A stretch of DNA of 64,000 nucleotides from a virus (IMGVR_UViG_3300034053_000029:32001-96000), one strand, 5' to 3'. Positions 18,793-54,839 are shown, counted from the first letter of the stretch. Numbers and translations are program-made. Notes: a model not told the origin generated them from the letters alone.

Positions 18793-18865
18793 GATAAATA
18801 TCATGTAGCAACAAAAAATGCTAGTCACGAAGCGTCAACTTCTACTAGCCCTAGACATTCTAACA
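18793..18865 (+). promoter_or_regulatory. Late promoter plus structured leader, family A copy 1
   Basis: GATAAATA 18793-18800; GCTAGT-CAC-GAAG-CGTCAA-CTTC-T-ACTAGC-CCTAGA at 18820-18855. Confidence 0.75.
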
Positions 18866-18883
18866 TTTATCAAGGAGACAAAT

Positions 18884-19573
18884 ATGTCCAGCACTAGTAT
18901 TTATCAATTCAAACCTACATTTCTATACATCAAACAACATACCGTAACTGGTAAATTATACTTTGGTAAGACTACCAAGAATCCAGAAACATATCTTGGT
19001 AGTGGAAAATATTGGAGAAACCACATCAAGAAGCACGGAATAAAATATGTAATAAATTTGTGGTATTGTTTATTTTTAGACGAAAGCGATTGTAAGAATT
19101 TTGCATTATCTTTTTCTGAACAAAATGATATTGTTGAGTCGAGTATATGGGCAAATCTGATTAATGAGAATGTGTCTGGTGGTGGAAATATTGGAAAATT
19201 AAACGGAATGCACAAATCCAATAGAGATTACGATACCGATAAAGAAAAGAAGAGAATTAACAACATGAGAGCATCGAGAGCATTAGCATCAAAAGACCAA
19301 AATGTAAAATCATATTCTAGAGTCAAATCTGAAGAAGAACGTAAGAAGATTAGCGATAAAGCTAAACATCGATCTTTAGTAATATGTCCACATTGTGGCA
19401 AAGAATGTAATCAAATAAACGCAATTAGACATCATTTAGATAGATGCAAATCAAACCCAAATATATCAGAAGAAGATATGTTTATCAATAAGGTGACTAG
19501 AATACACGACAGAAAGTTAATGCAAATTGGTGGTTTTGCTGCTTGGATAAAGTGTAGCAAACATCTTCCTTAA
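18884..19573 (+). CDS. Seg-like GIY-YIG homing endonuclease
   Basis: FLYIKQH...LYFGKT, YLGSG; start MSSTSIY after AGGAG; antisense to neighbours. Confidence 0.85.
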   Translation: MSSTSIYQFKPTFLYIKQHTVTGKLYFGKTTKNPETYLGSGKYWRNHIKKHGIKYVINLWYCLFLDESDCKNFALSFSEQNDIVESSIWANLINENVSGGGNIGKLNGMHKSNRDYDTDKEKKRINNMRASRALASKDQNVKSYSRVKSEEERKKISDKAKHRSLVICPHCGKECNQINAIRHHLDRCKSNPNISEEDMFINKVTRIHDRKLMQIGGFAAWIKCSKHLP

Positions 19574-20138
19574 TCTTCATTCTTGCCTCACTACTATGTC
19601 AGATGGATATCCATCACGATTAATCAAAGTGTCTCGCACATATTTTTCGGTGCAACTGACATTATAGAATACTATGTCGTATTCAGTCAAATACCCTGAT
19701 TCCTCGGAGTAGCGATAAACGATAAATCTACGCATGATTAGTTACAATTGTCCCAACAGATGCTGTAATATTCATATTTGTTTGGAAACTCAGTTTCCAA
19801 TTTGTCAATCATTTTGTATTCCTCACCGACTTGATACTCTCCATCAAAACAAGACCATTTGTCTCGACTTCCGTCTGACTTGATCCCATAGACGGTAGAA
19901 ATGTCACTTCGACGTTCTTCATAAATTTTAGCCATGCCAGTACCTAACTATTCCAATAATATTAATAATACCAAACATCACATTAACTTCAACCAAAGAA
20001 CGTGACGCATTCGATTTGTATGCCAACCAACCACCAAGGATACTGGACATAAGGAACAACCAGTATCCTGTGACATTTTGACCGACATTGAGTGCAATCA
20101 ATACCGCACCAATAAGACTACTGGCACGGTAGAGATTT

Positions 20139-20534
20139 TCACACCAATTCATAAGCACGGTCCCAACGACCGATCTTCACTTCGACGTAGTGCTTAACGT
20201 GATGGTAATCGGACATGATATCGGACTTGTCGAACCAACCCTCACCACGAAGTGCTTCAACAGCGGCAACTGCAAAATCCTTAGCCTTGCCAGTGAATTG
20301 TTCCTTCACCCAATACGGATTCACATTGATGCTATCCTTCGCCGGATTAAAACGAGGATCATTCTTGTGAGTTTCGTTGAAGTTCTTGATGAAGTCGATC
20401 TTACCGGACTTTACCGTGAGAACCAACGTCGAATGATTATCAACCGACAACGAACCAGAAAGACCGTATTGCTTCAGAAGTGCCTTGATCTTCGGGGCAA
20501 TCGCTTTTTTCTCAGATTGGGAAATGTAAGCCAT
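20139..20534 (-). CDS. Conserved early hypothetical protein
   Basis: First gene after promoter copy 4, AGGAG RBS; FDKSDIMSDY motif. Confidence 0.7.
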   Translation of the reverse strand: MAYISQSEKKAIAPKIKALLKQYGLSGSLSVDNHSTLVLTVKSGKIDFIKNFNETHKNDPRFNPAKDSINVNPYWVKEQFTGKAKDFAVAAVEALRGEGWFDKSDIMSDYHHVKHYVEVKIGRWDRAYELV

Positions 20535-20566
20535 TTGTTTCTCCTAGTGCGTTGTCGATGTGATGA

Positions 20567-20612
20567 ATTATAAACGAACGATTCTGGAAGTCAACAACTT
20601 TCGTAAGTGGCT
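20567..20612 (-). promoter_or_regulatory. Early sigma70-type promoter cassette (copy 4)
   Basis: TTGACT-16-TATAAT; GTCAACAACTTTCGTAAGTG. Confidence 0.82.
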
Positions 20613-20616
20613 GAAA

Positions 20617-21183
20617 CTAAAGGGTTTTTACATACTCCACTACATCATCGAAAAACGAATTGCCCTGATGGTCGGCAGAATCATAGAATCTTTTGTATGG
20701 GTGATATTCGGGAACATCATACGGATCAACCACTTGGTCGTTCTTTGCAATAAAGAAATGACGATTCACCAGACTGCCTTTTGATGAGTACTTATTGAAT
20801 GACTCAACAATTTCACAAGTCATTGATTTGCTTGTGTTTGTTTGGTAATCAACATAGCCGGAATCTAGATATTTCTTGAGCGAAATTTCTGGTGACATTG
20901 CAGGATTAACAAGCACTTGCGTTGCATCCCACTTCTCACCCATTCTTGCCGCCCAAAACCCACCTAGACTAGTTCCAACAAACACGACCTTAGTGAAACT
21001 TCCATCGTAGTAATGTTTTGTTATTACCCGATCAAGAAAGTCATCTAATGTCGCTTCTGCTTTGACTGGATCAACTGGGATACTAGGTGCCTCAACCAGA
21101 AACCCTGCGTCTCGTAAGTCTTTGACTTTACTAGAGTTTGGTGAACCACCAAGTCCGTGAAAATAAACAACTAAGGTTTTCAT
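20617..21183 (-). CDS. YqiA/YcfP-like alpha/beta hydrolase
   Basis: YFHGLGGSPNS, nucleophile elbow GTSLGG, VNPA, D-x-V-V, DH. Confidence 0.85.
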   Translation of the reverse strand: MKTLVVYFHGLGGSPNSSKVKDLRDAGFLVEAPSIPVDPVKAEATLDDFLDRVITKHYYDGSFTKVVFVGTSLGGFWAARMGEKWDATQVLVNPAMSPEISLKKYLDSGYVDYQTNTSKSMTCEIVESFNKYSSKGSLVNRHFFIAKNDQVVDPYDVPEYHPYKRFYDSADHQGNSFFDDVVEYVKTL

Positions 21184-27825: not shown

Positions 27826-27873
27826 TATAAATAATATGTGGATCACGATGCGCTAACATCTATCCACCCTAGA
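27826..27873 (+). promoter_or_regulatory. Late promoter plus structured leader, family A copy 2
   Basis: TATAAATA 27826-27833; GTGGAT-CAC-GATG-CGCTAA-CATC-T-ATCCAC-CCTAGA at 27838-27873. Confidence 0.75.
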
Positions 27874-27900
27874 ACTTAAACTAAACATGGGAGTCCCAGC

Positions 27901-28542
27901 ATGAATATTTATGCCGAAATGATATCAACAATTGCAATTAAAAACAAATATACCAAATGGTATCTGTCGATTATTTCAAACTCAAAATATAAAGAAGGGT
28001 ATTGTGAAAAACATCATATTCTTCCAAAGTGTTTCAAACTTGGTGGAGAAAAAGACCCATCAAATATCGTCAAATTGACTGCTAAAGAGCATTTTGTTTG
28101 TCATTTGTTATTGACTAAAATGTTCTTAGACAAAAAGAAATTTCAAATGATATACGCTTGCAATCGGATGTGTTTCAAACAAACACCAAATCACAAACGA
28201 GAATATGCAGTTTCATCTTCAGTATATGCTATAGTTAAATCAGAACAATCAAAGTATATGAAAATTAACAATCACAATAAAGATGGCAGTCAATCTAAAG
28301 CAGCATGGGATGTTGCATCCGAAGAAAGACATATAAATCAATCAGCAGTTGCAACTAAAAGGAATATAGAATATTGGGCAACAAGAAAGAAACCAATATT
28401 AGATTTTATATGTGAAGTGTGTGGAATTGAGTTTACATCAAAAAAGGAAAATCGTCGTTGTTGCGGCAAATCTTGTGCAGCAAGACTCAGAAATAAAATG
28501 CGGTGGCTTGGGAAACAAGGTATGCCACCAACCCCGGTTTGA
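27901..28542 (+). CDS. HNH homing endonuclease
   Basis: EKHHILPK...NIVKLTAKEHFVCH; C-terminal CxxC...CxxxC. Confidence 0.85.
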   Translation: MNIYAEMISTIAIKNKYTKWYLSIISNSKYKEGYCEKHHILPKCFKLGGEKDPSNIVKLTAKEHFVCHLLLTKMFLDKKKFQMIYACNRMCFKQTPNHKREYAVSSSVYAIVKSEQSKYMKINNHNKDGSQSKAAWDVASEERHINQSAVATKRNIEYWATRKKPILDFICEVCGIEFTSKKENRRCCGKSCAARLRNKMRWLGKQGMPPTPV

Positions 28543-28800
28543 GTACTCCTTATGCTGCTAAGGCCCAAACAGCGTCATTAGATGCGCCATTTACATAGTT
28601 TATCATCTTCGACCGAGTTGCCCCAATCCTAACGGCTTCTGATTATTGCCGATTCTCCAGATCATATCTATGCCCAATCGAAAGGATTATACAGGCCCAT
28701 GGATAAGCACACATCTCTATGTGCTTATTGGTGGACCTGACGGACACCACGCCGTGTCTTGAACATTTCAACTTTCCTTCAACGAATTCTTAAAATCCTT
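28500..28800 (-). ncRNA. ssrA: Circularly permuted (two-piece) tmRNA
   Basis: 3' acceptor CAGGTCC-A-CCA (ends 28729) lies upstream of 5' GGGCCTG (starts 28698), with a G3:U70 pair. 30-nt hairpin intervening segment. TTCGA-TTGGGCAT pairs with ATGTTCAA-GAC. Tag frame GGC GCA TCT AAT GAC GCT GTT TGG GCC TTA GCA GCA TAA (28588-28550). Outer ends approximate. Confidence 0.88.
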
Positions 28801-30348: not shown

Positions 30349-30428
30349 TATAAATATATAGGTTAGCTAATATCGTCACATATCAGCAACTCGCTCGGAG
30401 ACGAGCTGTCCCTATGACAATATTTATT
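30349..30428 (+). promoter_or_regulatory. Late promoter plus structured leader, family B copy 1
   Basis: TATAAATA 30349-30356; TATAGG-TTAG-hairpin-hairpin-TGTC-CCTATG. Confidence 0.65.
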
Positions 30429-30440
30429 CTCGGAGATTAT

Positions 30441-31310
30441 ATGTATAACAACCCAAGATGCTCATGTGTTCTTTGTCACTTAGAGGTGTCATCTACTGTA
30501 TTATCAAAACATATTGGCGGAAAACTGTGTCAGGAAACAGTGAAATTCCCAAACAAAAAAGTTGGATTTTGTAAATACTGTAATATTGATATATCAAATC
30601 TAAATAAAAGTGAAAAACAAAATCATGTTCAATGGTGTAGTCACAACCCAAATAAAACCACAAAAAGAAAACAAGTTTCAGAGCAATTGAATGCGTCTTG
30701 GAAAACAAATAAAGACGATAGAATCTCTAAAGTTAAATACACTAAATCAATTAGGTATGGTGATGAAAACTATAATAACCCATCAAAGAATAAGGAAACA
30801 AATATTATCAATAATGGTGGTTATTCAAACAATAGAGAACAAGCAAAAGAGACTTGCATAAACAAATATGGTGTTGATAACCCAAATAAACTAAAATGTG
30901 TCAGAGATAAAATAGAAAACACAAATTTAGAAAAATATGGTGTTAGACATTTGATGCAAGATCATAATGTTTTTGAAGAGAGGCAATCCTACAGAAAAAC
31001 AAACAAACAATTCACTTTTCCTTCTGGAAAAGTTGTGAATGTTCAAGGGTATGAGCCTTTAGTCATACAACAACTTTTAGATTCAGGGTATTCTGAAGAT
31101 CAAATTCAAGTTACAGGAAGAAAAGGATTTAAATATGTGTTTGAAGGAAAAGAACGAATTTATCATCCTGATATTATCATACCACACGAAAATCGTGTAA
31201 TCGAGGTCAAATCAAAATATTGGTATGAAAGAGAACTAAGTAAAAACCTTGCCAAACAACAAGGAACAATATCTGCAGGATTTACCCACGAATTTGTTAT
31301 CGTAAAATAG
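30441..31310 (+). CDS. Putative homing endonuclease with PD-(D/E)XK C-terminus and KYGV repeats
   Basis: N-terminal CxxC motifs, KYGVDNP/KYGV repeats, YHPDIII...IEVKS; start trimmed to ATG after GGAG. Confidence 0.75.
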   Translation: MYNNPRCSCVLCHLEVSSTVLSKHIGGKLCQETVKFPNKKVGFCKYCNIDISNLNKSEKQNHVQWCSHNPNKTTKRKQVSEQLNASWKTNKDDRISKVKYTKSIRYGDENYNNPSKNKETNIINNGGYSNNREQAKETCINKYGVDNPNKLKCVRDKIENTNLEKYGVRHLMQDHNVFEERQSYRKTNKQFTFPSGKVVNVQGYEPLVIQQLLDSGYSEDQIQVTGRKGFKYVFEGKERIYHPDIIIPHENRVIEVKSKYWYERELSKNLAKQQGTISAGFTHEFVIVK

Positions 31311-32275: not shown

Positions 32276-33088
32276 ATGAAAAATCAAACCTGCAAGCACT
32301 GCAATCAGACACTACCGAACCTTTCACCTAAGGTATTTTCTAACCACGTTAGGTGGTGTGATAAAAATCTGAATAGAAAGAAAGTAGGCCCAATTGGTAT
32401 AGCCAAAAGGGCAAAAACGATCAAACAGAATACTTTTAATAGAAAAATAATATTATGGAAAGAATATTACTTAACACCAAAAATATGTGTTGAATGTAAA
32501 AATGAAATTGATTGGTTTAGAAAAGACCAGATGTGTTGTTCTGCATCGTGTGCAGCAAAAGTTTCTAATAGAAATAAAACACCAGAACAAAAACACAAAG
32601 CAAAAAATTGTGGTAAATTGCTAGGCAGAAATAATAAAAAGGTTAAAGAACCAATTGCACCATATTCAAAAGTGTATAAGTGTACTTGTAAGGTATCTGG
32701 TATTGTTTGGTACAGTAAAACAGTAAAGCATATACACCCTAGTGTAACTGAAACTAAACAACAGTACTCATATCAATGTAGATTCAATTTCCAAATTAAA
32801 ACTTATTCTAATTGGTTTTATTATTCATCAGAGTTGATCAATCATTTTGGTTGGTATGCTGCCAAAAATAAAGGTGACAATCTAACCGGATGTTCTAGAG
32901 ATCACTTATACTCTGTAAATGACGGATTTATCAATAATGTTGATCCAAAAATAATTTCTCATCCAGCTAATTGTGAGATAAAACCACATAAACAAAATCA
33001 ATCCAAAGGCAGATCATCTTCAATAACTTTAACAGAATTGTTAGATAGAATTACAACTTTTGAAAATAAGTATGGGAGAGTGGTATGA
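32276..33088 (+). CDS. HNH-type homing endonuclease with Zn fingers
   Basis: CxxC motifs; SRDHLYS...HPANC...HKQNQSK; start trimmed to MKNQ. Confidence 0.78.
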   Translation: MKNQTCKHCNQTLPNLSPKVFSNHVRWCDKNLNRKKVGPIGIAKRAKTIKQNTFNRKIILWKEYYLTPKICVECKNEIDWFRKDQMCCSASCAAKVSNRNKTPEQKHKAKNCGKLLGRNNKKVKEPIAPYSKVYKCTCKVSGIVWYSKTVKHIHPSVTETKQQYSYQCRFNFQIKTYSNWFYYSSELINHFGWYAAKNKGDNLTGCSRDHLYSVNDGFINNVDPKIISHPANCEIKPHKQNQSKGRSSSITLTELLDRITTFENKYGRVV

Positions 33089-33147
33089 GAATCGAACTCA
33101 TTTGATTAGTTTTGCAGACTAACACCTAACCATTCGGACAACCACTC
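33074..33147 (-). tRNA. tRNA-Cys(GCA)
   Basis: GAGTGGT/ACCACTC acceptor stem, U73, loop CTGCAAA; encoded end is CCC, not CCA. Confidence 0.88.
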
Positions 33148-33188
33148 TCACATAATTACTCTAGTCATTCGGCCAACGTCATATTGTT

Positions 33189-33262
33189 TGGAAGGGGTAC
33201 TTGGAATCGAACCAAGTCTAATGCTGTCAAAGAGCATGGTGCAGCCAATACACTTTACCCCT
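33189..33262 (-). tRNA. tRNA-Gln(TTG)
   Basis: Cloverleaf, loop CTTTGAC, CCA. Confidence 0.9.
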
Positions 33263-33268
33263 ATTGTT

Positions 33269-33342
33269 TGGTGGGTCATGAAGGTACTGCCCCTTCGTCG
33301 ACTGGTTAAAAGCCAGATGTTCTACTATTGAACTAATGACCC
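33269..33342 (-). tRNA. tRNA-Lys(TTT)
   Basis: Loop CTTTTAA, atypical T loop GGCAGTA, CCA. Confidence 0.88.
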
Positions 33343-33918
33343 GAAATAGGCGAGTTTCATTTCTCCCTAAAGAAACTAATCCTCGATCTTCACTGTTATT
33401 CCACAGCATGGCAGACTAGCCACTGTTCCAATTAAAAGGGATAATGACAAGCGGAACATAATCTCTAGTTACTCGTCATTATTTTTCGCTCACGATTTTG
33501 CTCTCTACCACAAAGGGAGCGTGGTAGGCGAGGAAGCACCGAAGTTCTTATTTGCTAATATGTACCAATGCCCACAATGCTACGATTGGAGCAATGACCA
33601 ATCCAATTGCTATAATTCCACCGATCATGTGACTCTCCTATCGAAATAGCAGCAATGGAACTGCTGCACTTACCATAAACAATGCGACACCGTGTATCGC
33701 TAACCATAGACTGAATTTTAGTTCATCTACGACTTTATCAATCACGACGTGTATCCTTGATATCACGCATAATCATTGATTCTGCTAGTTGACGATGTGA
33801 GTGTGATTCAAACGTGGAAAGCCACTCTAGAAATTTAATAATTAAAGTCATGTAATGCTCCTAATGAAAGATAATATTTATGCTGCAATGCAGCACATTT
33901 CTCCTTCTCCAACCCTCA

Positions 33919-34443
33919 TTAGGATTTATTCAAACTAAGTTTCTGCGGCACTTTTAATGACGATTCTATTGCCCTAGAAAGTGGGACTTGTCTAACATAT
34001 TCATTACTTGCTTTGCGGTTATTCCACGGAACAAGATCATATTCTAATATTACGTTACTGTCAAGAACAACAGCACGAGTACAAAGATTATTCATCTGAA
34101 CGTATTTCACCAGAAAGTTATTAGCAAACTTGAATGGGACATTCTTAAATAGCTTTTGTTCTTTTTTCCAAAGACAATCTTTACGTTCAATGCAGTTGAT
34201 CGTTTTAAATGGAAAATCAATATCGCCTTTCCAATTTTCATGTCGCACTTCAACTTCCCATGCAGCAATAACTTTTTTATCAGCATTCAACGATAAAACA
34301 TCTATTCCAAATTTGTTAGGGTTCTCGATATGAAATGGGACATCTGTAATTCTATACTTCAATCTAGCAATCAGTGCATCTTTACCTTTTTTATCCCATT
34401 TATTGTGTTCTTCCTCATCGAATGGTTTTAATGATCCTATCAT
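33919..34443 (-). CDS. Hypothetical protein, possible PD-(D/E)XK fold
   Basis: GIDVL...WEVEVR; start trimmed to MIGSL because the longer ORF overlaps a tRNA. Confidence 0.6.
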   Translation of the reverse strand: MIGSLKPFDEEEHNKWDKKGKDALIARLKYRITDVPFHIENPNKFGIDVLSLNADKKVIAAWEVEVRHENWKGDIDFPFKTINCIERKDCLWKKEQKLFKNVPFKFANNFLVKYVQMNNLCTRAVVLDSNVILEYDLVPWNNRKASNEYVRQVPLSRAIESSLKVPQKLSLNKS

Positions 34444-34458
34444 ATGATCCTCATAAAA

Positions 34459-34553
34459 TGGTACTCCCGACTGGACTCGAACCAGTATCATCAGCCAATC
34501 TAGCCGCAATGCCGAGGTATAAGCTCGGAGTTTTACCGTTAAACTACAGGAGT
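34459..34553 (-). tRNA. tRNA-Ile(TAT) with long variable arm
   Basis: ACTCCTG/CGGGAGT acceptor stem, CCGAG-CTTATAC-CTCGG anticodon arm, about 25-nt extra arm, CCA. Confidence 0.82.
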
Positions 34554-34619
34554 ATTAAATAAAACTGGATACGCATAGTTGAGTAAAAGTCAATTGTGAT
34601 TGCTGTAGGTATCCAAAAC

Positions 34620-34696
34620 TGGTCGGAGATGAGAGATTCGAACTCCCGACATCTTGCTCCCAAAGCAAGCGGTCTACCAGACTGACCTAATCTCCG
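34620..34696 (-). tRNA. tRNA-Pro(TGG)
   Basis: Loop TTTGGGA, CCA. Confidence 0.92.
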
Positions 34697-34703
34697 ATAA
34701 TGC

Positions 34704-34778
34704 TGGCGCCCCCACACGGAATCGAACCATGAACTAGACTTTAGAAGAGTCCTGTTATATCCATTTAACTATAGGGAC
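34704..34778 (-). tRNA. tRNA-Arg(TCT)
   Basis: Loop CTTCTAA, CCA. Confidence 0.92.
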
Positions 34779-34785
34779 GAAATTC

Positions 34786-34864
34786 TGGCTCCGTATCTAG
34801 GGAACGATCCTAGCTAGTCAGTGATTAACAGTCACGCCCATGCACCAAGCTCGGGTTATACGGA
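34786..34864 (-). tRNA. tRNA-Asn(GTT)
   Basis: Loop CTGTTAA, G73, CCA. Confidence 0.9.
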
Positions 34865-34872
34865 ATTGTTAC

Positions 34873-34946
34873 TGGTGCCTATTGACGGAATCGAACCGCC
34901 ATAACAAGATTACAAATCTAGCGTAATACCATTATACGAAATAGGC
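34873..34946 (-). tRNA. tRNA-Thr(TGT)
   Basis: Loop TTTGTAA, CCA. Confidence 0.9.
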
Positions 34947-34953
34947 ATAAAAC

Positions 34954-35026
34954 TGGTTGCGACCACGGGAGTTGAACCCGCTTCCATCTTGGCTTATGAG
35001 GCCAGAGTCTACCACTAGAAGTCGCA
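34954..35026 (-). tRNA. tRNA-Met or Ile2 (CAT), short D arm
   Basis: Loop CTCATAA, TGCGACT/GGTCGCA acceptor stem, CCA. Confidence 0.8.
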
Positions 35027-35259
35027 ATTAATTAAAAGTATCTTGTCTTGGGTTTAAGGACACCATTTAATCCTCCTTACAGGTCTCTAGTAATCATCTA
35101 GCATAGCAAGGATATTGACAGTGACTTTGACAAGCAAGTTCGTTGATTAGACGATTTGTTCCCATACTTATTTAAACGGAATGACTTTTTGCTCCTTATT
35201 TTTATGTCCGGTAAGCAAACGGACTGCCATTAAATTGATTGCTGTAATCATTCCAAAAC

Positions 35260-35335
35260 TGGTGGAGACGGTCGGAATCAAACCGACCACAGAATCATTG
35301 CAAGTGATTCTCGCCCTCTTGGTACATTCGCCCCC
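35260..35335 (-). tRNA. tRNA-Ala(TGC)
   Basis: Loop CTTGCAA, G3:U70, CCA. Confidence 0.9.
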
Positions 35336-35393
35336 GTTATTTCTGTAACATATGCATAGTATATAGTGTCTGCATATTGAAGTCAAGTAATTT

Positions 35394-35476
35394 TGGTGGG
35401 ACAGGAGAGATTTGAACTCTCAAGCCGAAGCGTCTGAGCTTAAATCAGATGTGTTTGCCAATTTCACCACAGTCCC
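35394..35476 (-). tRNA. tRNA-Leu(TAA)
   Basis: Loop TTTAAGC, variable arm, CCA. Confidence 0.9.
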
Positions 35477-36229
35477 ATGTTCTTTAATTTGTTCAAGAAT
35501 ACCATCCCAATTAAATGATCTCTTATCTGAACTTAGTAATATTATTATGCTAACTCCAAGCTCTATTTCACAAAGATTAATTTTTTGTATTTGTAATTCT
35601 TGTATTTTGATTATTCTTTCGCTTCGTTCATTTGTAGATTTCTTACACCACATACTCTTTGGGTCTAAATAAACATTAAAATCTGGTAAATAAAAATCTG
35701 GTTCATACTTACGACCATCTGACAATACTAGTGGTGTTGGTCTCGACCACACAATTCTATTTTTATCCAATATATTAGCAACTTGCCATTCATGTATAGA
35801 TTCTAAATTAAACTTTAACCCAAATGAATCTATGTAAGGTATATAATTTCTTTTCCACCGTAATGTTGGATTTGCTGCTACTCCAGCTATACTTGGTTTC
35901 CATTTTCCAATGATGAACGATTCGTGTCGAGATTCTATTTGTTTTGATATACTTTGGTGAGTATCTTTTGTGTGCCCTTTACTCCAGTTCATCTTATCCT
36001 TAATTTCTTGAGGTAAGTTTTCATATCTTTGTTTGGCAGGTACTCTGCCACCATTTATATATGATTCTTTCGTACCTTTGCTATTTTTCTCTTTACATTT
36101 CGGACATTGTGTTGATCTAGGACTACACATCAAATTGCCAGATAAGTTTATATATTTTGCAATCTGATTACACCCATAATGACAAAGTTCTGCTGTTATT
36201 ATTTGTTCTGATTTTCTATGTTTTCCCAT
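35420..36229 (-). CDS. Putative homing endonuclease, PD-(D/E)XK type
   Basis: N-terminal CxxxC/CxxC; YEPDFYL...YLDPKS; start at MGKH after GAGG; C-terminus runs into tRNA-Leu. Confidence 0.78.
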   Translation of the reverse strand: MGKHRKSEQIITAELCHYGCNQIAKYINLSGNLMCSPRSTQCPKCKEKNSKGTKESYINGGRVPAKQRYENLPQEIKDKMNWSKGHTKDTHQSISKQIESRHESFIIGKWKPSIAGVAANPTLRWKRNYIPYIDSFGLKFNLESIHEWQVANILDKNRIVWSRPTPLVLSDGRKYEPDFYLPDFNVYLDPKSMWCKKSTNERSERIIKIQELQIQKINLCEIELGVSIIILLSSDKRSFNWDGILEQIKEHGTVVKLANTSDLSSDASA

Positions 36230-36301
36230 TTGTGCCTCGATGATAAATGTATACATATATTTATCATTTTACACTCTTGAGTATACCAATTATTTAAAAT
36301 C

Positions 36302-36375
36302 TGGTACTTCGTGATGGTTATGCTCCACCGTAGCCGCTTTATCAAAACGGTATTCTTCTATTGAATTAACGAAGC
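36302..36375 (-). tRNA. tRNA-Ile(GAT)
   Basis: Loop TTGATAA, CCA. Confidence 0.88.
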
Positions 36376-36383
36376 ATTATTAC

Positions 36384-36470
36384 TGGAGCAGGAGACAGGA
36401 ATCGAACCTGCTTACGGCTTTCGCCTTACTTGATTGGAAGTCAAGCGCCTAACCAATAGGCTACACCTGC
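36384..36470 (-). tRNA. tRNA-Gly(TCC) with long variable arm
   Basis: CTTGA-CTTCCAA-TCAAG, U73, extra arm GGC-GAAA-GCC, CCA. Confidence 0.85.
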
Positions 36471-36477
36471 ATAATTT

Positions 36478-36551
36478 TGGCGAGTCTGTAAGGAATTTAA
36501 CCCTATCCGCCGAGGTTGGAACTCGGAATGCTAACGTAACACTTCAGACCC
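36478..36551 (-). tRNA. tRNA-Trp(CCA)
   Basis: Loop TTCCAAC, G73, CCA. Confidence 0.88.
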
Positions 36552-36560
36552 ATATTGTTT

Positions 36561-36632
36561 TGGTGCCCAATGAAGGAGTCGAACCTTCTCAGTCGTGATT
36601 CGTATTCACAACGCCGTTCCGTCGGATTGGAC
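36561..36632 (-). tRNA. tRNA-Arg(ACG)
   Basis: Loop ATACGAA, short D arm, CCA. Confidence 0.82.
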
Positions 36633-36638
36633 TTTATT

Positions 36639-36714
36639 TGGTGCCGCCTCGTGGTTTCGATCCACGCTTTCCACCTTTTCAGGGTAGCACTTTCACCAGA
36701 TTAGTTTAAGCGGC
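36639..36714 (-). tRNA. tRNA-Phe(GAA)
   Basis: Loop CTGAAAA, CCA. Confidence 0.9.
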
Positions 36715-36721
36715 AATGATT

Positions 36722-36808
36722 TGGTGCGAGTGACAGGCATCGAACCTGTAAGACCGTTAAGTCGCTGACTTCTAAAGACAGTGTGTTTCCCAATTTCACC
36801 ACACTCGC
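36722..36808 (-). tRNA. tRNA-Leu(TAG)
   Basis: Loop TTTAGAA, variable arm, CCA. Confidence 0.9.
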
Positions 36809-36818
36809 ATTGTGTTAC

Positions 36819-36915
36819 TGGAGGAAAAGGTGAGATTCGAACTCACGGCCCACGGATGGTTACGGGACGCTGGTTTTCAAGACCAGAGCAATAAACCGGA
36901 CTCTGCCACTTTTCC
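36819..36915 (-). tRNA. tRNA-Ser(TGA)
   Basis: Loop CTTGAAA, long variable arm, CCA. Confidence 0.92.
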
Positions 36916-36925
36916 ATTGTGTTAC

Positions 36926-37015
36926 TGGCGGAAGAATGAGGTCACGATCCCCATGCCATATTTCAGGCACCTATCGTTTAGCAAACGATGCTGTCACCTT
37001 GACAATTAATCTTCC
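36926..37015 (-). tRNA. tRNA-Ser(GCT)
   Basis: Loop TTGCTAA, long variable arm, G73, CCA. Confidence 0.9.
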
Positions 37016-37024
37016 ATTTAATTT

Positions 37025-37100
37025 TGGTCAGAGTGGGGAATTACGATATCCCAACCTCCTGTATCCAAGACAGGCCGTCTTCCTTTGACAATACACTCAG
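37025..37100 (-). tRNA. tRNA-Pro(TGG), second divergent copy
   Basis: CCTGT-CTTGGAT-ACAGG, CCA. Confidence 0.82.
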
Positions 37101-37108
37101 ATAATTCT

Positions 37109-37183
37109 TGGTATCGCACTGGGGTTTCGATCCCCACTCACTAGTTTGAAGGACTAGTTGCCACGCCAGCTGCATCGTGCGAT
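37109..37183 (-). tRNA. tRNA-Glu(TTC)
   Basis: CTAGT-CCTTCAA-ACTAG (C at position 33), CCA. Confidence 0.8.
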
Positions 37184-37294
37184 GTATAAATTCTTGCTAT
37201 GTCCTTTTGCGAGGACTCTAGTTGTGGCTTGAGAGGCATCGTTCCTAGAATCGAGAGGCACTTCCACCAAACCGTAAAGCGACGGTCTGCATTT

Positions 37295-37369
37295 TGGCGA
37301 CACGGAAGGGAATCAAACCCTCATAAGTCTCCTAGACAGGGAGATGCATTATCAATCTGCCACCGTGCC
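37295..37369 (-). tRNA. tRNA-Asp(GTC)
   Basis: Loop CTGTCTA, G73, CCA. Confidence 0.9.
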
Positions 37370-37835: not shown

Positions 37836-37894
37836 GATAAATAATAATGCTAGTCACGAAGCGTCAACTTCTACTAGCCCTAGACATTCTAACA
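37836..37894 (+). promoter_or_regulatory. Late promoter plus structured leader, family A copy 3
   Basis: GATAAATA 37836-37843; 49 bp (37846-37894) identical to 18817-18865. Confidence 0.78.
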
Positions 37895-37912
37895 ACTTGA
37901 AAGGATCAAATT

Positions 37913-38743
37913 ATGTCCAGCACCAGTATTTATCCATCAACGAAGATCGTTCCTTATGTTTATAAGTTGACTCATAAAGTCACTAAACAATTTTACTTTG
38001 GTGTTAGGTTTAGTAAAAACCAAAAACTACCATCGCACATCGATTTAGGAACACATTATTTCACATCATCGAAATGCATCAAACAACTTGGTTTTGATAA
38101 CTTTGACACCGAAATCCTAGCAGAATTTCCTTTCGACGGCGGAAGAATTGATGCTTACTTACTTGAACAACAATTAATCGAAGAGAACTTCTCAAATTCA
38201 CTCATCTTGAATAAGAACATATCAAAAACCAATAAAGGTTCTTTTTACTTTTGGATGCACAAAGGATCAACTTGTCAAGCAATCTCAGATGCAAACAAAG
38301 GCAGGAAATTAAGAGATTATGATTACAAACATTCGCTAGAAAGTAAAAATAAAATTAGCGAAGGTGTTGGTCGTAAATGTTCTTGCATATTATGCAAAGT
38401 CGAACTATCATCAATTACATCACTTAAATCACACTTCAAAAGTTGTTTTGAAGATTGGGAATCGATGCAGTGTTTATTCCCAAACTTAAATCAAAAGAAA
38501 CATCTCATCAAACCAAAAAGAATTAAGTCGCCCAAAATTATAAAACAAAAGCGAATCAAAAAAGAATTTAACAACTGTTTAGAATGTCAATCTAAAGTAA
38601 ATCGTCGTTCTAAAAAGTTTTGTAATTCGTCTTGTGCAGCAAAATACAACAATAAACTAAGACCCAAAGGGCACGAATCAAGAATAAAAAGCAATGAATC
38701 GAGAATAAACAAATTAAAATCTAGGTGTGCGTCTAATCTCTAG
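37913..38743 (+). CDS. Seg-like GIY-YIG homing endonuclease
   Basis: PYVYKL...FYFGVR, YFTSS, C-terminal Zn motifs; starts MSSTSIY. Confidence 0.85.
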   Translation: MSSTSIYPSTKIVPYVYKLTHKVTKQFYFGVRFSKNQKLPSHIDLGTHYFTSSKCIKQLGFDNFDTEILAEFPFDGGRIDAYLLEQQLIEENFSNSLILNKNISKTNKGSFYFWMHKGSTCQAISDANKGRKLRDYDYKHSLESKNKISEGVGRKCSCILCKVELSSITSLKSHFKSCFEDWESMQCLFPNLNQKKHLIKPKRIKSPKIIKQKRIKKEFNNCLECQSKVNRRSKKFCNSSCAAKYNNKLRPKGHESRIKSNESRINKLKSRCASNL

Positions 38744-51409: not shown

Positions 51410-51664
51410 TTAAATTGAACCTTTCACATAAAATTGGATAACAGAGTCTTTTCTAAAAGACCTCCATGCTTGCTTCTCTACATCAAAAACTCTAACTACT
51501 TCATCGGACAAGTGTCGCTTAGTTCCTTGTCCATCCTCATATTCTACTTTAGGAAGAACATCCTCGTCAAGAGTACAAACCATATTTCTTTTTGACCCAT
51601 CGACTTTCGTAAATTCAACACAAACTTCATTATTTTTCAGCAACTTAATCAAATCTTCAATCAT
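51410..51664 (-). CDS. WYL_2/DUF2693-like small protein
   Basis: VEFTKVDGSKRNMVCTL...VFDVEKQAWRSFR; start trimmed. Confidence 0.75.
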   Translation of the reverse strand: MIEDLIKLLKNNEVCVEFTKVDGSKRNMVCTLDEDVLPKVEYEDGQGTKRHLSDEVVRVFDVEKQAWRSFRKDSVIQFYVKGSI

Positions 51665-51692
51665 AAATACCTCACAAAGAAAAGGAACCCAC

Positions 51693-52142
51693 ATGTGGAA
51701 ATACAAAGGCAAAGAAATCACTGATGAAGACATTAAAGAATCTTATATCGGATTCATCTACCTCATTACTCAAAAATCTACTGGTAAAAAATACATCGGT
51801 AAAAAACTTCTAACTTCTGCTGCAACAAAAACTGTCAACGGAAAAAAGAAAAAGATCAGAAAACCTAGTGACTGGAAAAATTACTGGTCATCGTCACCAT
51901 CCATCAAAGAACTCATAGAGCAATGTGGAGAATCGGATTTTGACCGTGAAATCTTAGTGTTCTGTTCTAGCAAAGGATCACTCCTATATAACGAAGAAAT
52001 GGCACTATACATGGTTGGTGCATTAGAAGATGATGTATGGATAAACGCAAACATCCGTAGTAAAGTTTATTCTTCTTGGGTAAAGAAAGACGAATCAGTT
52101 GAACTAAGACAAACCATTAGGGCATTATCTATTTCAGCTTAG
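51693..52142 (+). CDS. Short GIY-YIG-type nuclease
   Basis: GFIYLIT...YIGKK, YWSSS; CATAAATA at 51662-51669. Confidence 0.8.
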   Translation: MWKYKGKEITDEDIKESYIGFIYLITQKSTGKKYIGKKLLTSAATKTVNGKKKKIRKPSDWKNYWSSSPSIKELIEQCGESDFDREILVFCSSKGSLLYNEEMALYMVGALEDDVWINANIRSKVYSSWVKKDESVELRQTIRALSISA

Positions 52143-52581: not shown

Positions 52582-52805
52582 GTTTAACCTCTATCCATAG
52601 CATCGTATTTTCCATCACCAAATAAGAGAATATAGCAAGTAAACTTGTTTCTTTATCACAATCTGATAAATTTTCACTATTTATGATATTTTGATATTGT
52701 TCAATTGCTCCTAGAATCGCTACTTGCTTAACAGAATCATAATTAAATGACTCGAAATCAATTGGCTTTTCCAAGGCAATTTCATCTACCAATTCGGAGA
52801 TATAT

Positions 52806-53435
52806 TCAATCTTCATTTGATTTTAGCTTCTTTTTTGAAATAATCATATGCTTATTTCTTGTAGATTCATCATATTTTTCTTCTGAAAATGATTTTGATA
52901 AGTGATCTTCCATAACTTCATGAGTAGTCTTATGTAACTTATTACCATCCCAATGATATACATGATGTCCGGAATCTAATGCACGTTTAACTATCCTATG
53001 CCAAAGTTTATGTCCCTCGGTATATTGTTCATCTGACGAACGTAATGGATTCTTGCTTTTCAAAAAATGATTCCAGATAACATTTGTTGCATGTCCTTTT
53101 GGTAAATCAGAATTATCTTTTGTGTGTTGTCTACTTACTTGTTTTTGTTGATCGTGTTTATATGGAAACTCTTTAGTTGGTTCAACTTCGTTCACCGCAG
53201 TTTGATGTAATGCTTCTTTTTTGTTATGGTCTAACGTAGTGTATGTAGTCGAAGAATTGTCACCAAACTTAGATTTATCGATATGAACCTTGATATTGTC
53301 TGTAATGTTTTCGTGTTGCTTATCTTTTTTATGCCTATCATACAATACCAACCTATTTGGTTTACTATCAAATAACGAATACGGTCTACCTATATTGACT
53401 GCCATCTCTTTTATTAATTGTAAATATGATTTCAT
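52806..53435 (-). CDS. Putative capsid-targeted protein, GNAT-like
   Basis: MKSYLQLIKE; KGHAT...SSDEQYTEGHKLW. Confidence 0.6.
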   Translation of the reverse strand: MKSYLQLIKEMAVNIGRPYSLFDSKPNRLVLYDRHKKDKQHENITDNIKVHIDKSKFGDNSSTTYTTLDHNKKEALHQTAVNEVEPTKEFPYKHDQQKQVSRQHTKDNSDLPKGHATNVIWNHFLKSKNPLRSSDEQYTEGHKLWHRIVKRALDSGHHVYHWDGNKLHKTTHEVMEDHLSKSFSEEKYDESTRNKHMIISKKKLKSNED

Positions 53436-53730
53436 ATTGAAACACTTTCCCCGTTAGTTGATATTGATATCGATTTTATTTCATTATTTTCATAATGTAT
53501 CAAATATTTAACACCATTTCTTTCAAATTCTAACCCATTCATCATATCAAAATAAAAGAAACCACGATCTAATATTTTATATAGGGACGAATTTATATTC
53601 TTGTTAGATAAATCTAATGTTTTAATAGCAGAGAGTATGAGATTTACATAACTAGAATCTATAATGTCTAAAAAAGGAATCATGGACATTATAGATTCTT
53701 GGTCGAACTTGCCGTTAATTACGGAGTCTT

Positions 53731-53955
53731 TCATGCTTCTAGCAATAGCTTAGAAATATTTTCCACGCCACCTTGAATCAACATTCCATCTTGGTAGAAT
53801 TGTGGAACTGATCTATGACCTTCGGACAAAAGAAACTCTCTAGCAGAAAGAGTTTCATCTATCTTTATTTCGTTAAATTGGATGTTCTTAGAACGTAGTA
53901 TCATTTTCGCACTATCACATGCAGGACAATTGTTTTTTGAATATACTGTAATCAT
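53731..53955 (-). CDS. Glutaredoxin (NrdC/NrdH-like)
   Basis: CPAC, SVPQF, IQGG. Confidence 0.9.
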   Translation of the reverse strand: MITVYSKNNCPACDSAKMILRSKNIQFNEIKIDETLSAREFLLSEGHRSVPQFYQDGMLIQGGVENISKLLLEA

Positions 53956-53980
53956 ATTTTTCTCCTTAAAATAAAAATCA

Positions 53981-54038
53981 TATAAATATACTTGTGGATC
54001 ACGGTTCTGTCAAACCCATCCACTCTAGACATTCTACA
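53981..54038 (+). promoter_or_regulatory. Late promoter plus structured leader, family A copy 4
   Basis: TATAAATA 53981-53988; GTGGAT-CAC-GGTT-CTGTCA-AACC-C-ATCCAC-TCTAGA at 53994-54029. Confidence 0.75.
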
Positions 54039-54053
54039 TTGAAAGGAACCAAT

Positions 54054-54839
54054 ATGTCCAGCGAAACTATTTATACATCAGAAAAAATTCTCCCATACGT
54101 CTATATTTGTATCCACAAAACCACCGAAGAGTTTTATATCGGATATAGAAGTGCAAATAAAGTTCCATCTAGCGAAGATTTGGGTAAAGTATACTTTACT
54201 AGCTCGAAACGAGTAAAACCAATATTCGAAGAATTTAATTTTTACATTATAGCAGAATTTTTTGATTCTAACGATGCATATAACCACGAACAAACTTTAA
54301 TAAAAGATCATTTTAATGATGCTCTATGTATAAATCAACACTACATTTCTCCAGACAATTTTTACGGTAAATTTAATCCAGGAACAACAAAAATAAGTAG
54401 AGAAAAAGCAAAAAGTAGAATGTTGTCTGAACACAATCCTTGTTACAACCAATCAAAAGAAACTAAGAATAAATTATCTAGTATTGTTTCGCTCAGAAAT
54501 TCAAAATTAACATCGGATGAAAAGAAACTAAAGTACGGCAATTATGCCGAAACCAATGGATTCTACAAAAAGAAGCATTCAGAAGACACAATTTTGATAT
54601 TAAGAGAGAAAAACACTAGATACGAATACAAATTAATTTCACCATCAGGAGAAATTTTTACAACATTATCTCTTAAAAACTTTTGCAATGAACATAATTT
54701 AAATAGACAGAGTTTAAATAGATTTATGAATAAAGGAAAAGTACCACCAGCTAGAATTGACGCAAAAGAACAAAGAATCAACACAAGCGGGTGGGAAGTA
54801 TGCATATTAAATGAGACACCCACCCGCCATGCAAGATAG
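54054..54839 (+). CDS. Seg-like GIY-YIG homing endonuclease
   Basis: PYVYIC...FYIGYR, YFTSS; starts MSSETIY; 3' end overlaps nrdJ. Confidence 0.85.
   Translation: MSSETIYTSEKILPYVYICIHKTTEEFYIGYRSANKVPSSEDLGKVYFTSSKRVKPIFEEFNFYIIAEFFDSNDAYNHEQTLIKDHFNDALCINQHYISPDNFYGKFNPGTTKISREKAKSRMLSEHNPCYNQSKETKNKLSSIVSLRNSKLTSDEKKLKYGNYAETNGFYKKKHSEDTILILREKNTRYEYKLISPSGEIFTTLSLKNFCNEHNLNRQSLNRFMNKGKVPPARIDAKEQRINTSGWEVCILNETPTRHAR

Follow-up and report, generated by a model that had tools for sequence, protein, structure and literature searches.

A covarying cassette at the 5' ends of phage homing endonuclease genes may encode an antisense RNA

Results

A structured element precedes homing endonuclease genes

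The DNA analysed here, hereafter the window, is a 64,000-nt stretch from the 210-kb genome (210,171 bp) of a T4-like phage. Four copies of a structured element lie in it, each at the start of a putative homing endonuclease gene (Table 1), and the coordinates and architecture given for them in the initial annotation were confirmed: a 6-bp stem, CAC, a 4-bp stem, a 6-nt loop, a 4-bp stem, 1 nt, a 6-bp stem and YCTAGA. In a strict pattern scan of the whole genome the fully paired instances were exactly these four, the remaining pattern matches being poorly paired. A covariance model of the hairpin identified seven copies in the genome (E 5e-14 to 1e-7), the extra three lying beyond the window at genome positions 12923 (+), 121738 (+) and 140049 (-). 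The association with nuclease genes was exclusive: all seven copies lie at the 5' end of a homing endonuclease gene, and in four other large phage genomes every copy (21/21) adjoins a nuclease ORF. The cassette also occurs in uncultured large phages, at dozens of nuclease genes.

The genes behind copies 1, 3 and 4 are paralogues with ~25% identity. Those of copies 3 and 4 match a homing endonuclease family, phrog_314, and the copy 3 gene adjoins a tRNA cluster. For the copy 1 gene no Pfam or PHROG family scored above threshold and the GIY-YIG match was sub-threshold only; by BLAST, it is similar to the element-associated nuclease ORFs L132, L137 and L143. Copies 1 and 3 are nevertheless identical over exactly 49 bp (18817-18865 and 37846-37894), as had been noted before, and copy 2 does precede an HNH-type gene. 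More broadly, the element is carried by several GIY-YIG subfamilies, by HNH_3 enzymes and by phrog_655-type HNH enzymes, which supports the earlier proposal that the cassette is portable between unrelated nuclease folds. Rfam 15 returned only tRNAs across the whole window at gathering thresholds, and at E <= 10 no match overlapped any element on either strand of seven 3-kb loci holding all seven copies.

Table 1. Features of the four cassettes, in window coordinates. Energies are fold energies in kcal/mol.
Feature	Position	Strand	Remarks
Copy 1 sense late-promoter box	18793..18800	+	GATAAATA; 19 nt 5' of hairpin
Copy 1 predicted antisense RNA	18808..18892	-	R2 match 41.9 bits; 5' G opposite C18892; antisense -25.0 vs sense -13.7
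Copy 1 tract	18812-18819	-	AUUUUUUG; within predicted antisense RNA
Copy 1 P1as/P2as hairpin	18820-18849	-	within predicted antisense RNA
Copy 1 P3as	18851-18858 with 18884-18891	-	inner helix and UCCUU anti-Shine-Dalgarno apical loop
Copy 1 putative GIY-YIG-type homing endonuclease gene	18884..19573	+	229 aa; starts MSSTSIY
Copy 1 antisense late-promoter box	18898..18905	-	GATAAATA; 5 nt before antisense start G; reads TATTTATC on sense strand, spanning Ile-Tyr codons
Copy 2 sense late-promoter box	27826..27833	+	TATAAATA; 4 nt 5' of hairpin
Copy 2 predicted antisense RNA	27827..27900	-	R2 match 50.6 bits; starts opposite C27900; antisense -19.1 vs sense -13.8
Copy 2 P1as/P2as hairpin	27838-27867	-	followed by U-rich tail
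Copy 2 P3as	27869-27876 with 27892-27899	-	within predicted antisense RNA
Copy 2 HNH-type homing endonuclease gene	27901..28542	+	213 aa; phrog_655 E 9e-33; phrog_12434 (HNH) E 1e-8
Copy 2 antisense late-promoter box	27906..27913	-	CATAAATA; in codons 2-5 (N-I-Y-A) of HNH gene
Copy 3 sense late-promoter box	37836..37843	+	GATAAATA; 5 nt 5' of hairpin
Copy 3 predicted antisense RNA	37837..37921	-	R2 match 50.4 bits; starts opposite C37921; antisense -24.7 vs sense -13.5
Copy 3 P1as/P2as hairpin	37849-37878	-	within predicted antisense RNA
Copy 3 P3as	37880-37887 with 37913-37920	-	within predicted antisense RNA
Copy 3 GIY-YIG-type homing endonuclease gene	37913..38743	+	276 aa; phrog_314 E 1e-17
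Copy 3 antisense late-promoter box	37927..37934	-	GATAAATA
Copy 4 sense late-promoter box	53981..53988	+	TATAAATA; 5 nt 5' of hairpin
Copy 4 predicted antisense RNA	53982..54062	-	R2 match 54.8 bits; starts opposite C54062; antisense -23.1 vs sense -14.8
Copy 4 P1as/P2as hairpin	53994-54023	-	within predicted antisense RNA
Copy 4 P3as	54025-54032 with 54054-54061	-	within predicted antisense RNA
Copy 4 GIY-YIG-type homing endonuclease gene	54054..54839	+	261 aa; phrog_314 E 3.5e-14
Copy 4 antisense late-promoter box	54068..54075	-	TATAAATA

Pairing statistics place the conserved fold on the antisense strand

The initial annotation held that the stem leaves the ribosome-binding site uncovered, which is true of the hairpin (P1/P2) only, as a further helix had been missed. 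In this third helix, which covaries, the post-hairpin tail CUANNNNN pairs with NNNNNCAG, at or just 5' of the start codon, thereby enclosing the Shine-Dalgarno sequence of the nuclease gene in a loop of 6 to 28 nt. One or two A.C mismatches interrupt this helix on the gene strand, where it is often missing from the minimum-energy fold. Scoring G.U and A.C equally, we counted 354 Watson-Crick, 83 A.C, 7 G.U and 20 other cells in the gene-strand helix, and the non-standard cells of P1/P2 were likewise 11 A.C/C.A versus 4 G.U/U.G in the gene-strand-model alignment. Because an A.C departure on one strand is a G.U pair on the other, we read the fold as belonging to the antisense strand.

On that strand, 98.9% of 1076 cells in 63 distinct sequences pair, G.U accounting for ~101 of the cells and non-standard combinations for 12 at most, and a MAFFT alignment of 21 sequences, to which no model had been fitted, gave 98.1%. 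Compensatory changes were present at 15 of the 18 pairs, a result matched by 0/500 shuffles (63 sequences, antisense strand), so that with relatives added the covariation suspected from the four copies is far beyond chance. An antisense-strand G.U is retained in 61/63 sequences, and the CRC/GYG bulge and closing G-C pairs are conserved. Mean fold energies over the 63 sequences were -19.5 kcal/mol for the antisense and -12.8 kcal/mol for the sense strand (a gap of ~6.7), the antisense fold being the stabler one in 60/63 (Wilcoxon p = 7e-12), and shuffle z-scores of the sense folds reached only about -1. According to these pairing statistics, selection acts on the fold of the antisense strand, and not, as first described, on an mRNA leader. 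Strand-biased mutation could add to the G.U/A.C asymmetry, but would not explain the G.U kept in 61/63 sequences. P1/P2 is also well paired when read on the gene strand, so the hairpin may serve a separate role in the mRNA.

Two late-promoter-like boxes face one another across the element

A NATAAATA box precedes all four copies, in agreement with the ATAAATA-type late promoter first assigned to each, and stands closer to the stem in copies 2-4 than in copy 1 (Table 1). In all of the phage's own copies and in 37/52 relatives, the whole structure is found 3-20 nt downstream of the box. Because NATAAATA is also found 20-40 nt 5' of long structural ORFs in this phage, we take it to be a working late promoter.

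The downstream conservation of CCAGC and TATTTAT seen earlier was present in all copies as CCAGC-N5/6-TATTTAT, and on the other strand this motif reads as a late promoter, NATAAATA-N5-GCUGG. Judged by sequence, it is now best described as a candidate late-promoter box with its start site on the antisense strand. An antisense NATAAATA-N5-G(C/T)UGG occurs in 7/7 own copies; among the relatives, TAAATA stands exactly 5 nt from the antisense start G in 34/52 and 4-6 nt from it in 39/52, a clean TAAATA at 4-6 nt being missing in about a quarter. The box occurs in three reading frames and is retained in GIY-YIG, HNH_3 and phrog_655-type HNH genes, the HNH products starting M-x-I-Y, M-Y-L or M-L-F-I. 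Its Tyr codon is TAT in 29/31 genes, versus only 9-12/31 for the following three Tyr codons, and its Ile codon is ATT in 28/28; synonymous codon choice is constrained at this box. As expected of cis-antisense control, the sequence has a putative promoter that opposes the target gene from within or beside its first codons.

At the other end of the predicted antisense RNA, copies without an adjacent sense promoter have 5-7 consecutive U behind the hairpin (genome positions 50820 and 12923; copies L070, L110, L031, L043, L056 and L094). A simple terminator scan called nothing at copies 1 and 3, and in most copies the tail is only U-rich, for instance ACUAUUAUUUAU, so termination of the antisense transcript may be leaky. 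Just past the U tract of copy 1, outside the conserved element, the minus strand carries a sigma70-like promoter that apparently belongs to the neighbouring gene.

A model for antisense control of nuclease expression

Since the conserved fold is on the antisense strand, the most likely product of the cassette is a small antisense RNA acting to restrain the nuclease. Specifically, we propose, with a probability of roughly 0.6, that convergent late promoters flank a cassette encoding an ~80-nt antisense RNA which silences nuclease translation much as IS10 RNA-OUT or P22 sar silences its target. The cassette would be a self-contained expression-control unit of ~85-110 bp that a free-standing homing endonuclease gene carries at its 5' end, with two T4-type late promoters facing one another over the structured segment. 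From the sense promoter, the nuclease mRNA would start at, or close to, the position where hairpin P1/P2 begins. From the promoter in the first codons of the gene, an antisense transcript of ~75-90 nt would start at the G opposite the C of CCAGC and fold into two hairpins: a 5' hairpin, P3as, with the conserved G.U and an apical loop complementary to the gene's Shine-Dalgarno sequence, and the bulged hairpin P1as/P2as, after which a U-rich tract would end the RNA.

By coordinates, the antisense fold overlaps the Shine-Dalgarno sequence plus the AUG or position -1 of its target, again as expected of cis-antisense control. Over its first ~80 nt, a stretch that takes in the Shine-Dalgarno sequence as well as the start codon or the preceding base, the nuclease mRNA would be perfectly matched by the predicted RNA, which should therefore pair with it. 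Pairing probably begins by loop-loop contacts, and the resulting duplex would block ribosome binding and invite duplex cleavage. We infer firing of the antisense promoter, termination after the hairpin and translational repression alike; if they hold, nuclease expression would stay low regardless of insertion site. A cis-antisense regulator was not among the functions proposed in the initial annotation. Both promoters are late-type, which counts against the antisense reading in respect of when the nuclease would escape repression.

Discussion

Alternative explanations

We regard it as unlikely that the functional RNA is instead the 5' end of the nuclease mRNA, with a terminal hairpin at the late start shielding the message from 5'-end-dependent decay, a tail/start-codon helix dampening translation constitutively and the antisense signals arising as by-products. 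The hairpin does start 3-6 nt past TAAATA in 37/52 copies, at or near the expected +1, P1/P2 is nearly all Watson-Crick on the gene strand, the third helix surrounds the Shine-Dalgarno sequence and overlaps or borders on the AUG, and hairpins masking the ribosome-binding site are the established control of T-even endonuclease genes (PMC2988022). Yet the gene-strand third helix carries a conserved A.C mismatch, often a second (83 A.C against 7 G.U), and the mean sense fold is weaker by 6.7 kcal/mol, with shuffle z near -1. Such a leader also leaves unexplained the fixed-distance TATTTAT, retained in different reading frames and nuclease folds despite codon preference, and the U runs that stand behind the hairpin on the opposite strand only. 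The antisense-strand structure might alternatively act without a dedicated small RNA, on long transcripts, such as early or late ones from flanking genes, that run through the cassette opposite to the nuclease gene; its role as a terminator, insulator or processing site would spare the neighbours, and the TATTTAT box would then be weak, or serve late re-expression of the neighbour. We consider this improbable as well. The upstream neighbour is divergent, and hence co-directional with the antisense strand, at 42 of 58 loci, the hairpin with its U-rich tract is terminator-like, and the sigma70-like promoter directly after copy 1 recalls the terminator-plus-early-promoter PeSL cassettes (PMC2839356). 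At the other 16 loci, however, where the neighbour is co-directional with the nuclease, such a role makes little sense, as for the copy that sits between terminase and tail-sheath genes; because neighbour orientation varies, the antisense RNA would not simply be the neighbour's leader. Moreover, the terminator scan was negative at copies 1 and 3, the promoter box is under nucleotide-level constraint, and in every copy the 5' helix starts one base past the predicted antisense start, fitting an RNA begun there.

An element acting as DNA or through a bound protein, whether a single-stranded hairpin or an operator for mobility, replication or nuclease autorepression, seems very unlikely. I-TevI represses itself via an operator over its late promoter (PMC2988022), a DNA hairpin would tolerate G.T wobble too, and the conserved CRC/GYG bulge and closing G-C pairs are compatible with protein contact. 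The stems, though, vary freely in sequence while pairing is kept, and the nucleases have unrelated DNA-binding and catalytic folds, which together make a common protein-specific DNA site unlikely; nor does a third-helix loop of 6-28 nt resemble a dimeric operator. Hairpin-ended ssDNA transposons of the IS200/IS605 type have structured ends on both sides, whereas here there is one element per gene, always 5', and neither covariance model found a second at nuclease-gene 3' ends. For this reason the ssDNA mobility end once suggested for the element is unlikely; for the other early suggestions, an RNA cofactor or guide and a protein-bound operator, we found no support.

Comparison with known systems

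Our searches of the searchable literature and of RNA libraries found no published description of such control on homing endonuclease genes. The T-even hairpins that sequester the ribosome-binding site together with a late promoter, at I-TevI, I-TevII, I-TevIII, segB and Aeh1 mobE (PMC2988022), resemble the cassette in that a late promoter stands beside an RNA helix engaging the Shine-Dalgarno sequence or AUG of a homing endonuclease gene, and in a purpose, proposed for the cassette, of restraining nuclease translation. There the promoter is nested in the hairpin, which frees late transcripts from masking (PMC2988022); here, by contrast, both arms are downstream of the promoter, the putative masking helix has gene-strand mismatches with the fold selected on the opposite strand, and a putative second promoter faces the first. 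The odd seg43(25) hairpin of Aeromonas phage 25, checked as well, is not this motif. In cyanophage S-PM2, the antisense RNA CfrI, detected experimentally (Millard et al. 2010, in PMC2984593), likewise lies opposite a homing endonuclease gene of a T4-like phage. As that source describes it, CfrI is ~225 nt long, links the endonuclease gene to psbA and has no known function, and the description includes no portable covarying cassette or anti-Shine-Dalgarno loop (PMC2984593). Dassa et al. (2009) described hairpins with conserved motifs and TATAAATA 5' of endonuclease genes in metagenomic 'fractured genes' (PMC2677866). Like the cassette, these lie in the 5' UTRs of free-standing endonucleases, GIY-YIG and Vsr-like, in uncultured marine and freshwater phage DNA, but as described they act translationally on the sense strand and include the promoter, and the description offers no antisense reading (PMC2677866).

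PeSLs are mobile regulatory cassettes of T4-type phages that combine a promoter and a stem-loop (Arbiol et al. 2010, PMC2839356). They too are small, scattered in plastic T4-type regions and implicated in modular shuffling, but they consist of sigma70-type early promoters and terminators and are not tied to endonuclease genes (PMC2839356). The present element is not a PeSL, lacking a sigma70-type early promoter within its conserved part; its own promoters are of the late type, stand face to face and are always at the start of a nuclease gene.

Antisense control of transposase is exerted by the RNA-IN/RNA-OUT system of IS10/Tn10, reportedly described by Simons and Kleckner in 1983. In both cases the nuclease or transposase gene of a selfish element has an opposing promoter in or near its 5' end, a short, stable, bulged stem-loop RNA (here predicted) is complementary to the start of the mRNA, ribosome-binding region included, and the module moves with the element and limits its expression, again as predicted here. 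The two differ in that the promoters of the cassette are T4-type late, its predicted RNA has two hairpins, one with an anti-Shine-Dalgarno loop, and an overlap of ~80 nt, and its hosts are phage homing endonuclease genes rather than insertion sequences; there is no sequence or Rfam relationship, and the cassette is known from sequence alone. The sar RNA of phage P22, an antisense RNA of ~70 nt, is transcribed from a promoter that faces the one of its target gene, whose ribosome-binding site it covers. Like sar and similar phage cis-antisense RNAs, the cassette would place a small antisense RNA over the target's ribosome-binding site from facing promoters; it differs from sar in target, promoter type and fold, and in being a multi-copy, portable cassette present in many phages.

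Element copies in the window and the phage genome

The window comprises bases 32001-96000 of a complete IMG/VR record of 210,171 bp with terminal repeats and 38% G+C. The four element copies described in the initial annotation were recovered on the plus strand, with the layout it had given them (6-bp stem, CAC bulge, 4-bp stem, 6-nt loop, 4-bp stem, 1 nt, 6-bp stem, YCTAGA), and the 49-bp identity it had noted between copies 1 and 3 was exact. By a strict pattern scan, these four are the only fully paired instances in the whole genome. A covariance model of the hairpin built on the gene strand (R1) found seven copies in the genome, and a model of the antisense strand (R2) recovered the identical set.

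The genes behind copies 1, 3 and 4 are three paralogues, ~25% identical, whose products start MSS..IY. Those of copies 3 and 4 match phrog_314; that of copy 1 is without a family match, yet similar to other element-linked nuclease ORFs. Copy 2 does precede an HNH gene, as had been proposed (phrog_655/phrog_12434 HNH-type endonuclease). At the seventh copy, the element overlaps the end of a terminase ORF. A five-codon ORF upstream of the copy-2 gene is probably a by-product of the conserved CCAGC, and just past the same gene lie sub-threshold matches to tmRNA families. Copy 3 follows a tRNA cluster, a setting that we take to recall T4 segB.

Positions of the element copies and of features observed near them or related to them
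Feature	Position	Strand	Description
Copy 1	window 18820 (stem start)	+	nuclease gene 18884..19573
Copy 2	window 27838 (stem start)	+	HNH gene 27901..28542
Copy 3	window 37849 (stem start)	+	nuclease gene 37913..38743
Copy 4	window 53994 (stem start)	+	nuclease gene 54054..54839
Copy beyond the window	genome 12923	+	R1 covariance model
Copy beyond the window	genome 121738	+	R1 covariance model
Copy beyond the window	genome 140049	-	R1 covariance model
Locus L014 with the copy at 140049 (the seventh copy) and its GIY-YIG gene	genome 139149-141517	-	outside the window; flanked by large terminase and tail-sheath genes, all on the same strand
Sigma70-like promoter	window 18757-18785	-	near-consensus TTGACA-17-TAAAAT, 11/12; right after the copy-1 antisense U tract
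Gene preceded by the sigma70-like site	window 17953-18729	-	
Five-codon upstream ORF, copy 2	window 27887-27903	+	ATG GGA GTC CCA GCA TGA; TGA overlaps the HNH start codon ATG
tmRNA-like matches	window ~28550-28787	-	permuted tmRNA RF04321, 44.1 bits against a gathering threshold of 47; beta_tmRNA, also sub-threshold
14 tRNA genes	window 33077-37369	-	cluster ends ~470 nt before copy 3
Possible cassette remnant	window 12024-12080	+	GATAAATA, Shine-Dalgarno sequence, ATGTCCAGCAC, early stop (16-codon ORF); no hairpin
Leaderless genes	window 51662-52142 and 30349-31310	+	behind NATAAATA boxes
Cassette before truncated ORF	L149:1410-1499 (244-kb uncultured phage)	-	GIY-YIG-like ORF truncated after 30 codons

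A widespread family tied to nuclease genes

Further copies with new stem sequences came to light in pattern scans of IMG/VR. We then retrieved 104 loci encoding homologues of two GIY-YIG subfamilies. Model R1, applied to 100 of them, gave 67 matches (48 distinct sequences), each on the gene strand. With two exceptions, the matches were located 10-90 nt upstream of the start of the homologue; in L101 and L043, the match precedes another nuclease-like ORF of that locus. Among the loci, the antisense model R2 matched 65 times. Five large uncultured phage records (184-369 kb), searched in full, added 21 copies, which lie in four of the records (9, 7, 3 and 2 copies, respectively). Every one of these 21 adjoins a nuclease-like ORF, the ORFs comprising several GIY-YIG subfamilies, phrog_655-type HNH, HNH_3 (PF13392) and one truncated gene.

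A cassette in another uncultured phage stands before an ORF truncated after 30 codons, indicating that the element can outlast its own nuclease gene. A short window segment that lacks a hairpin looks like a decayed remnant of the cassette family. The cassette is absent from some late-promoted plus-strand genes: of the two leaderless genes in the table, one is a SegE-type GIY-YIG ORF (PF19835, E 4e-31) and the other a DUF7487 ORF.

The element is a new, widespread and strongly covarying RNA family. The elements had no match in Rfam 15 at gathering thresholds or even at E <= 10. Among deposited phages, neither megablast with the copy-1 region nor blastn with a relative's element gave a match. 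Some cultured phages carry related GIY-YIG genes; of these, S-SRM01 and RSP15 were without a match, and the only matches in S-N03 and ACG-2014f were weak and located elsewhere in the genome. One copy was found in a deposited phage, Pseudoalteromonas phage vB_Psh_XG4 (an unverified record), directly 5' of a nuclease gene. Aeromonas phage 25, whose seg43(25) gene has an 'unusual hairpin' according to the Edgell review, was fetched and scanned; its hairpin is a different, simple one, the motif is absent there, and the element was not found in the phage.

A third helix at the initiation region

The tail that follows the bulged hairpin (helices P1 and P2) is complementary to the initiation region of the nuclease gene. 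CUAGACAU pairs with AUGUCCAG in copies 1, 3 and 4; in the copy at genome position 12923, UUAGUCAU pairs with AUGACCAA, amounting to two compensatory changes, and in the copy at 140049, CUAGUU pairs with AACCAG directly before the AUG. This third helix is present in 52 of 58 distinct sequences in two layouts. In type I, the AUG lies within the 3' arm and the loop is 12-28 nt; in type II, the 3' arm stops 1-2 bases short of the AUG, and a loop of 6-10 nt contains the Shine-Dalgarno sequence. The initial annotation's statement that the stem does not cover the ribosome binding site is therefore incomplete, since the tail is complementary to the initiation region.

Pair types favor folding of the antisense strand

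An A.C mismatch on one strand is a G.U pair on the opposite strand, and pair types can thus be counted by strand. When the third helix was read on the gene strand with G.U and A.C scored equally, we counted 354 Watson-Crick, 83 A.C, 7 G.U and 20 other cells. In P1 and P2 aligned to the gene-strand model, A.C/C.A cells outnumbered G.U/U.G cells (11 vs 4). Our initial reading, in which the gene strand would form a 5'-terminal mRNA stabilizer and start-codon mask, was demoted once pair types had been counted on both strands.

On the antisense strand, the 63 distinct sequences found with R2 showed 98.9% pairing, with compensatory changes at 15 of 18 pairs, ~101 G.U cells and no more than 12 non-standard ones; one G.U was kept in 61 of 63. 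This alignment was fitted to R2, hence the weight we give to the unfitted pair-type counts and to an unfitted MAFFT alignment of 21 type II sequences. The latter had 98.1% standard pairs on the antisense strand and two-sided changes in 13 of 18 pairs, and none of 500 shuffles was as good. The antisense strand also had the more stable predicted fold in 60 of 63 sequences (mean -19.5 vs -12.8 kcal/mol for sense; Wilcoxon p = 7e-12). In the type I copies of the window, a longer antisense helix ends in a UCCUU loop that is complementary to the Shine-Dalgarno sequence. The covarying structure reported in the initial annotation stands; the interpretation given there is partly supported, the pair types favoring an antisense reading over an mRNA leader.

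A predicted convergent late promoter

The conserved CCAGC-N-TATTTAT reads on the opposite strand as NATAAATA-N5-GCUGG. The full octamer with a 5-nt spacer is present in all seven genome copies; in the 52 relatives, the distance between TAAATA and the start G is exactly 5 nt in 34 cases and within 4-6 nt in 39. NATAAATA also stands 20-40 nt ahead of many long minus-strand structural ORFs of the same phage, identifying it as the phage's working late promoter.

Codon choice bears on the same box. In 31 distinct genes behind the element, the in-box Tyr codon is TAT in 29, against only 9, 11 and 12 at the three Tyr codons that follow; the in-box Ile codon is ATT in 28 of 28. The box occurs in three reading frames and is kept in HNH genes, whose products for this reason start M-x-I-Y, M-Y-L or M-L-F-I. 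Judged by its sequence, the antisense box is constrained at the nucleotide level. The copy-2 HNH gene had also been considered a recent chimera with its first four codons taken from a GIY-YIG gene; this idea is unnecessary, as the antisense start and promoter would impose the shared CCAGCATGAWTATTTATG and other HNH genes have the same pattern.

On its 3' side, the antisense bulged hairpin is followed by a U-rich stretch that complements the sense promoter; copies in which the sense promoter is displaced or missing have 5-7 consecutive U there instead. A simple terminator scan, which demands an uninterrupted stem, called no site after the antisense hairpins, so that the 3' end of the antisense RNA is a putative one.

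The 5' neighbor gene was divergent from the cassette at 42 loci, co-directional with it at 16. A sigma70-like site beyond copy 1 appears to be the own promoter of its minus-strand neighbor, and several relatives have similar TTGAC boxes after the element. The mixed neighbor orientation, the copy between terminase and tail-sheath genes and the promoter of the copy-1 neighbor argue that the antisense RNA would not simply be the neighbor's leader.

Proposed mechanism and significance

As far as the sequences allow us to judge, the element most likely regulates homing endonucleases in cis through an antisense RNA. Two convergent late promoters would flank the cassette. The nuclease mRNA would begin at or near P1, since the sense box lies 3-6 nt upstream of P1 in 37 of 52 copies, and the antisense RNA would begin one base before its own 5' hairpin. 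Its complementarity would span the initial ~80 nt of the mRNA, with the Shine-Dalgarno sequence and either the AUG or position -1 among them, and would place the anti-Shine-Dalgarno sequence in an antisense loop opposite the Shine-Dalgarno loop of the mRNA. We infer that pairing of the two RNAs would block translation and probably lead to cleavage of the duplex. Nuclease expression would thereby be limited from any transcript crossing the gene, making the cassette independent of its landing site. We put the probability of this antisense-RNA mechanism at roughly 0.6.

An extension that we regard as improbable is that the cassette is more than a cis brake. In mixed infections, the small RNA would then work in trans, silencing matching nuclease genes that co-infecting relatives carry; identical copies such as 1 and 3 would be cross-regulated, selection for private specificities would underlie the free covariation of the stems, and the antisense RNAs would form an RNA-level layer of immunity or competition in the conflict between homing endonuclease and phage genome.

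Few selfish genes of large phages are as common as homing endonucleases, and to our knowledge how these are kept harmless to the carrier has been worked out for only a few T-even examples, through hairpins and autorepression. If the cis-antisense mechanism is correct, a portable cassette equipped with two promoters and its own antisense RNA would solve this problem generally, whatever the insertion site. At least three unrelated nuclease folds share the cassette, and genomes of uncultured T4-like and jumbo phages carry as many as nine copies. The catalogues would gain a new, strongly covarying RNA family, the peculiar M-x-I-Y or M-Y-L starts conserved among unrelated nucleases would be accounted for, and a compact, self-insulating expression module would become available.

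Comparison with known systems

T-even endonuclease genes are controlled by autorepression and by hairpins that mask the ribosome binding site and enclose a late promoter (PMC2988022). The promoter of the present cassette is outside the structure, and it therefore lacks the nested-promoter feature of those hairpins. Conserved hairpins and TATAAATA have been reported 5' of metagenomic endonucleases (Dassa et al., 2009; PMC2677866) and possibly overlap with the present element. In the literature on antisense control of homing endonucleases, we found nothing beyond CfrI of S-PM2, an antisense RNA opposite an endonuclease gene with unknown function (PMC2984593); the predicted antisense RNA would share this arrangement and differs in that CfrI is ~225 nt. 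The copy-1 U tract together with the sigma70-like site resembles the terminator-plus-early-promoter arrangement of PeSL. In logic, the closest systems are IS10 RNA-OUT and P22 sar, and the cassette, if it acts as proposed, would be the homing endonuclease counterpart of IS10's RNA-OUT.
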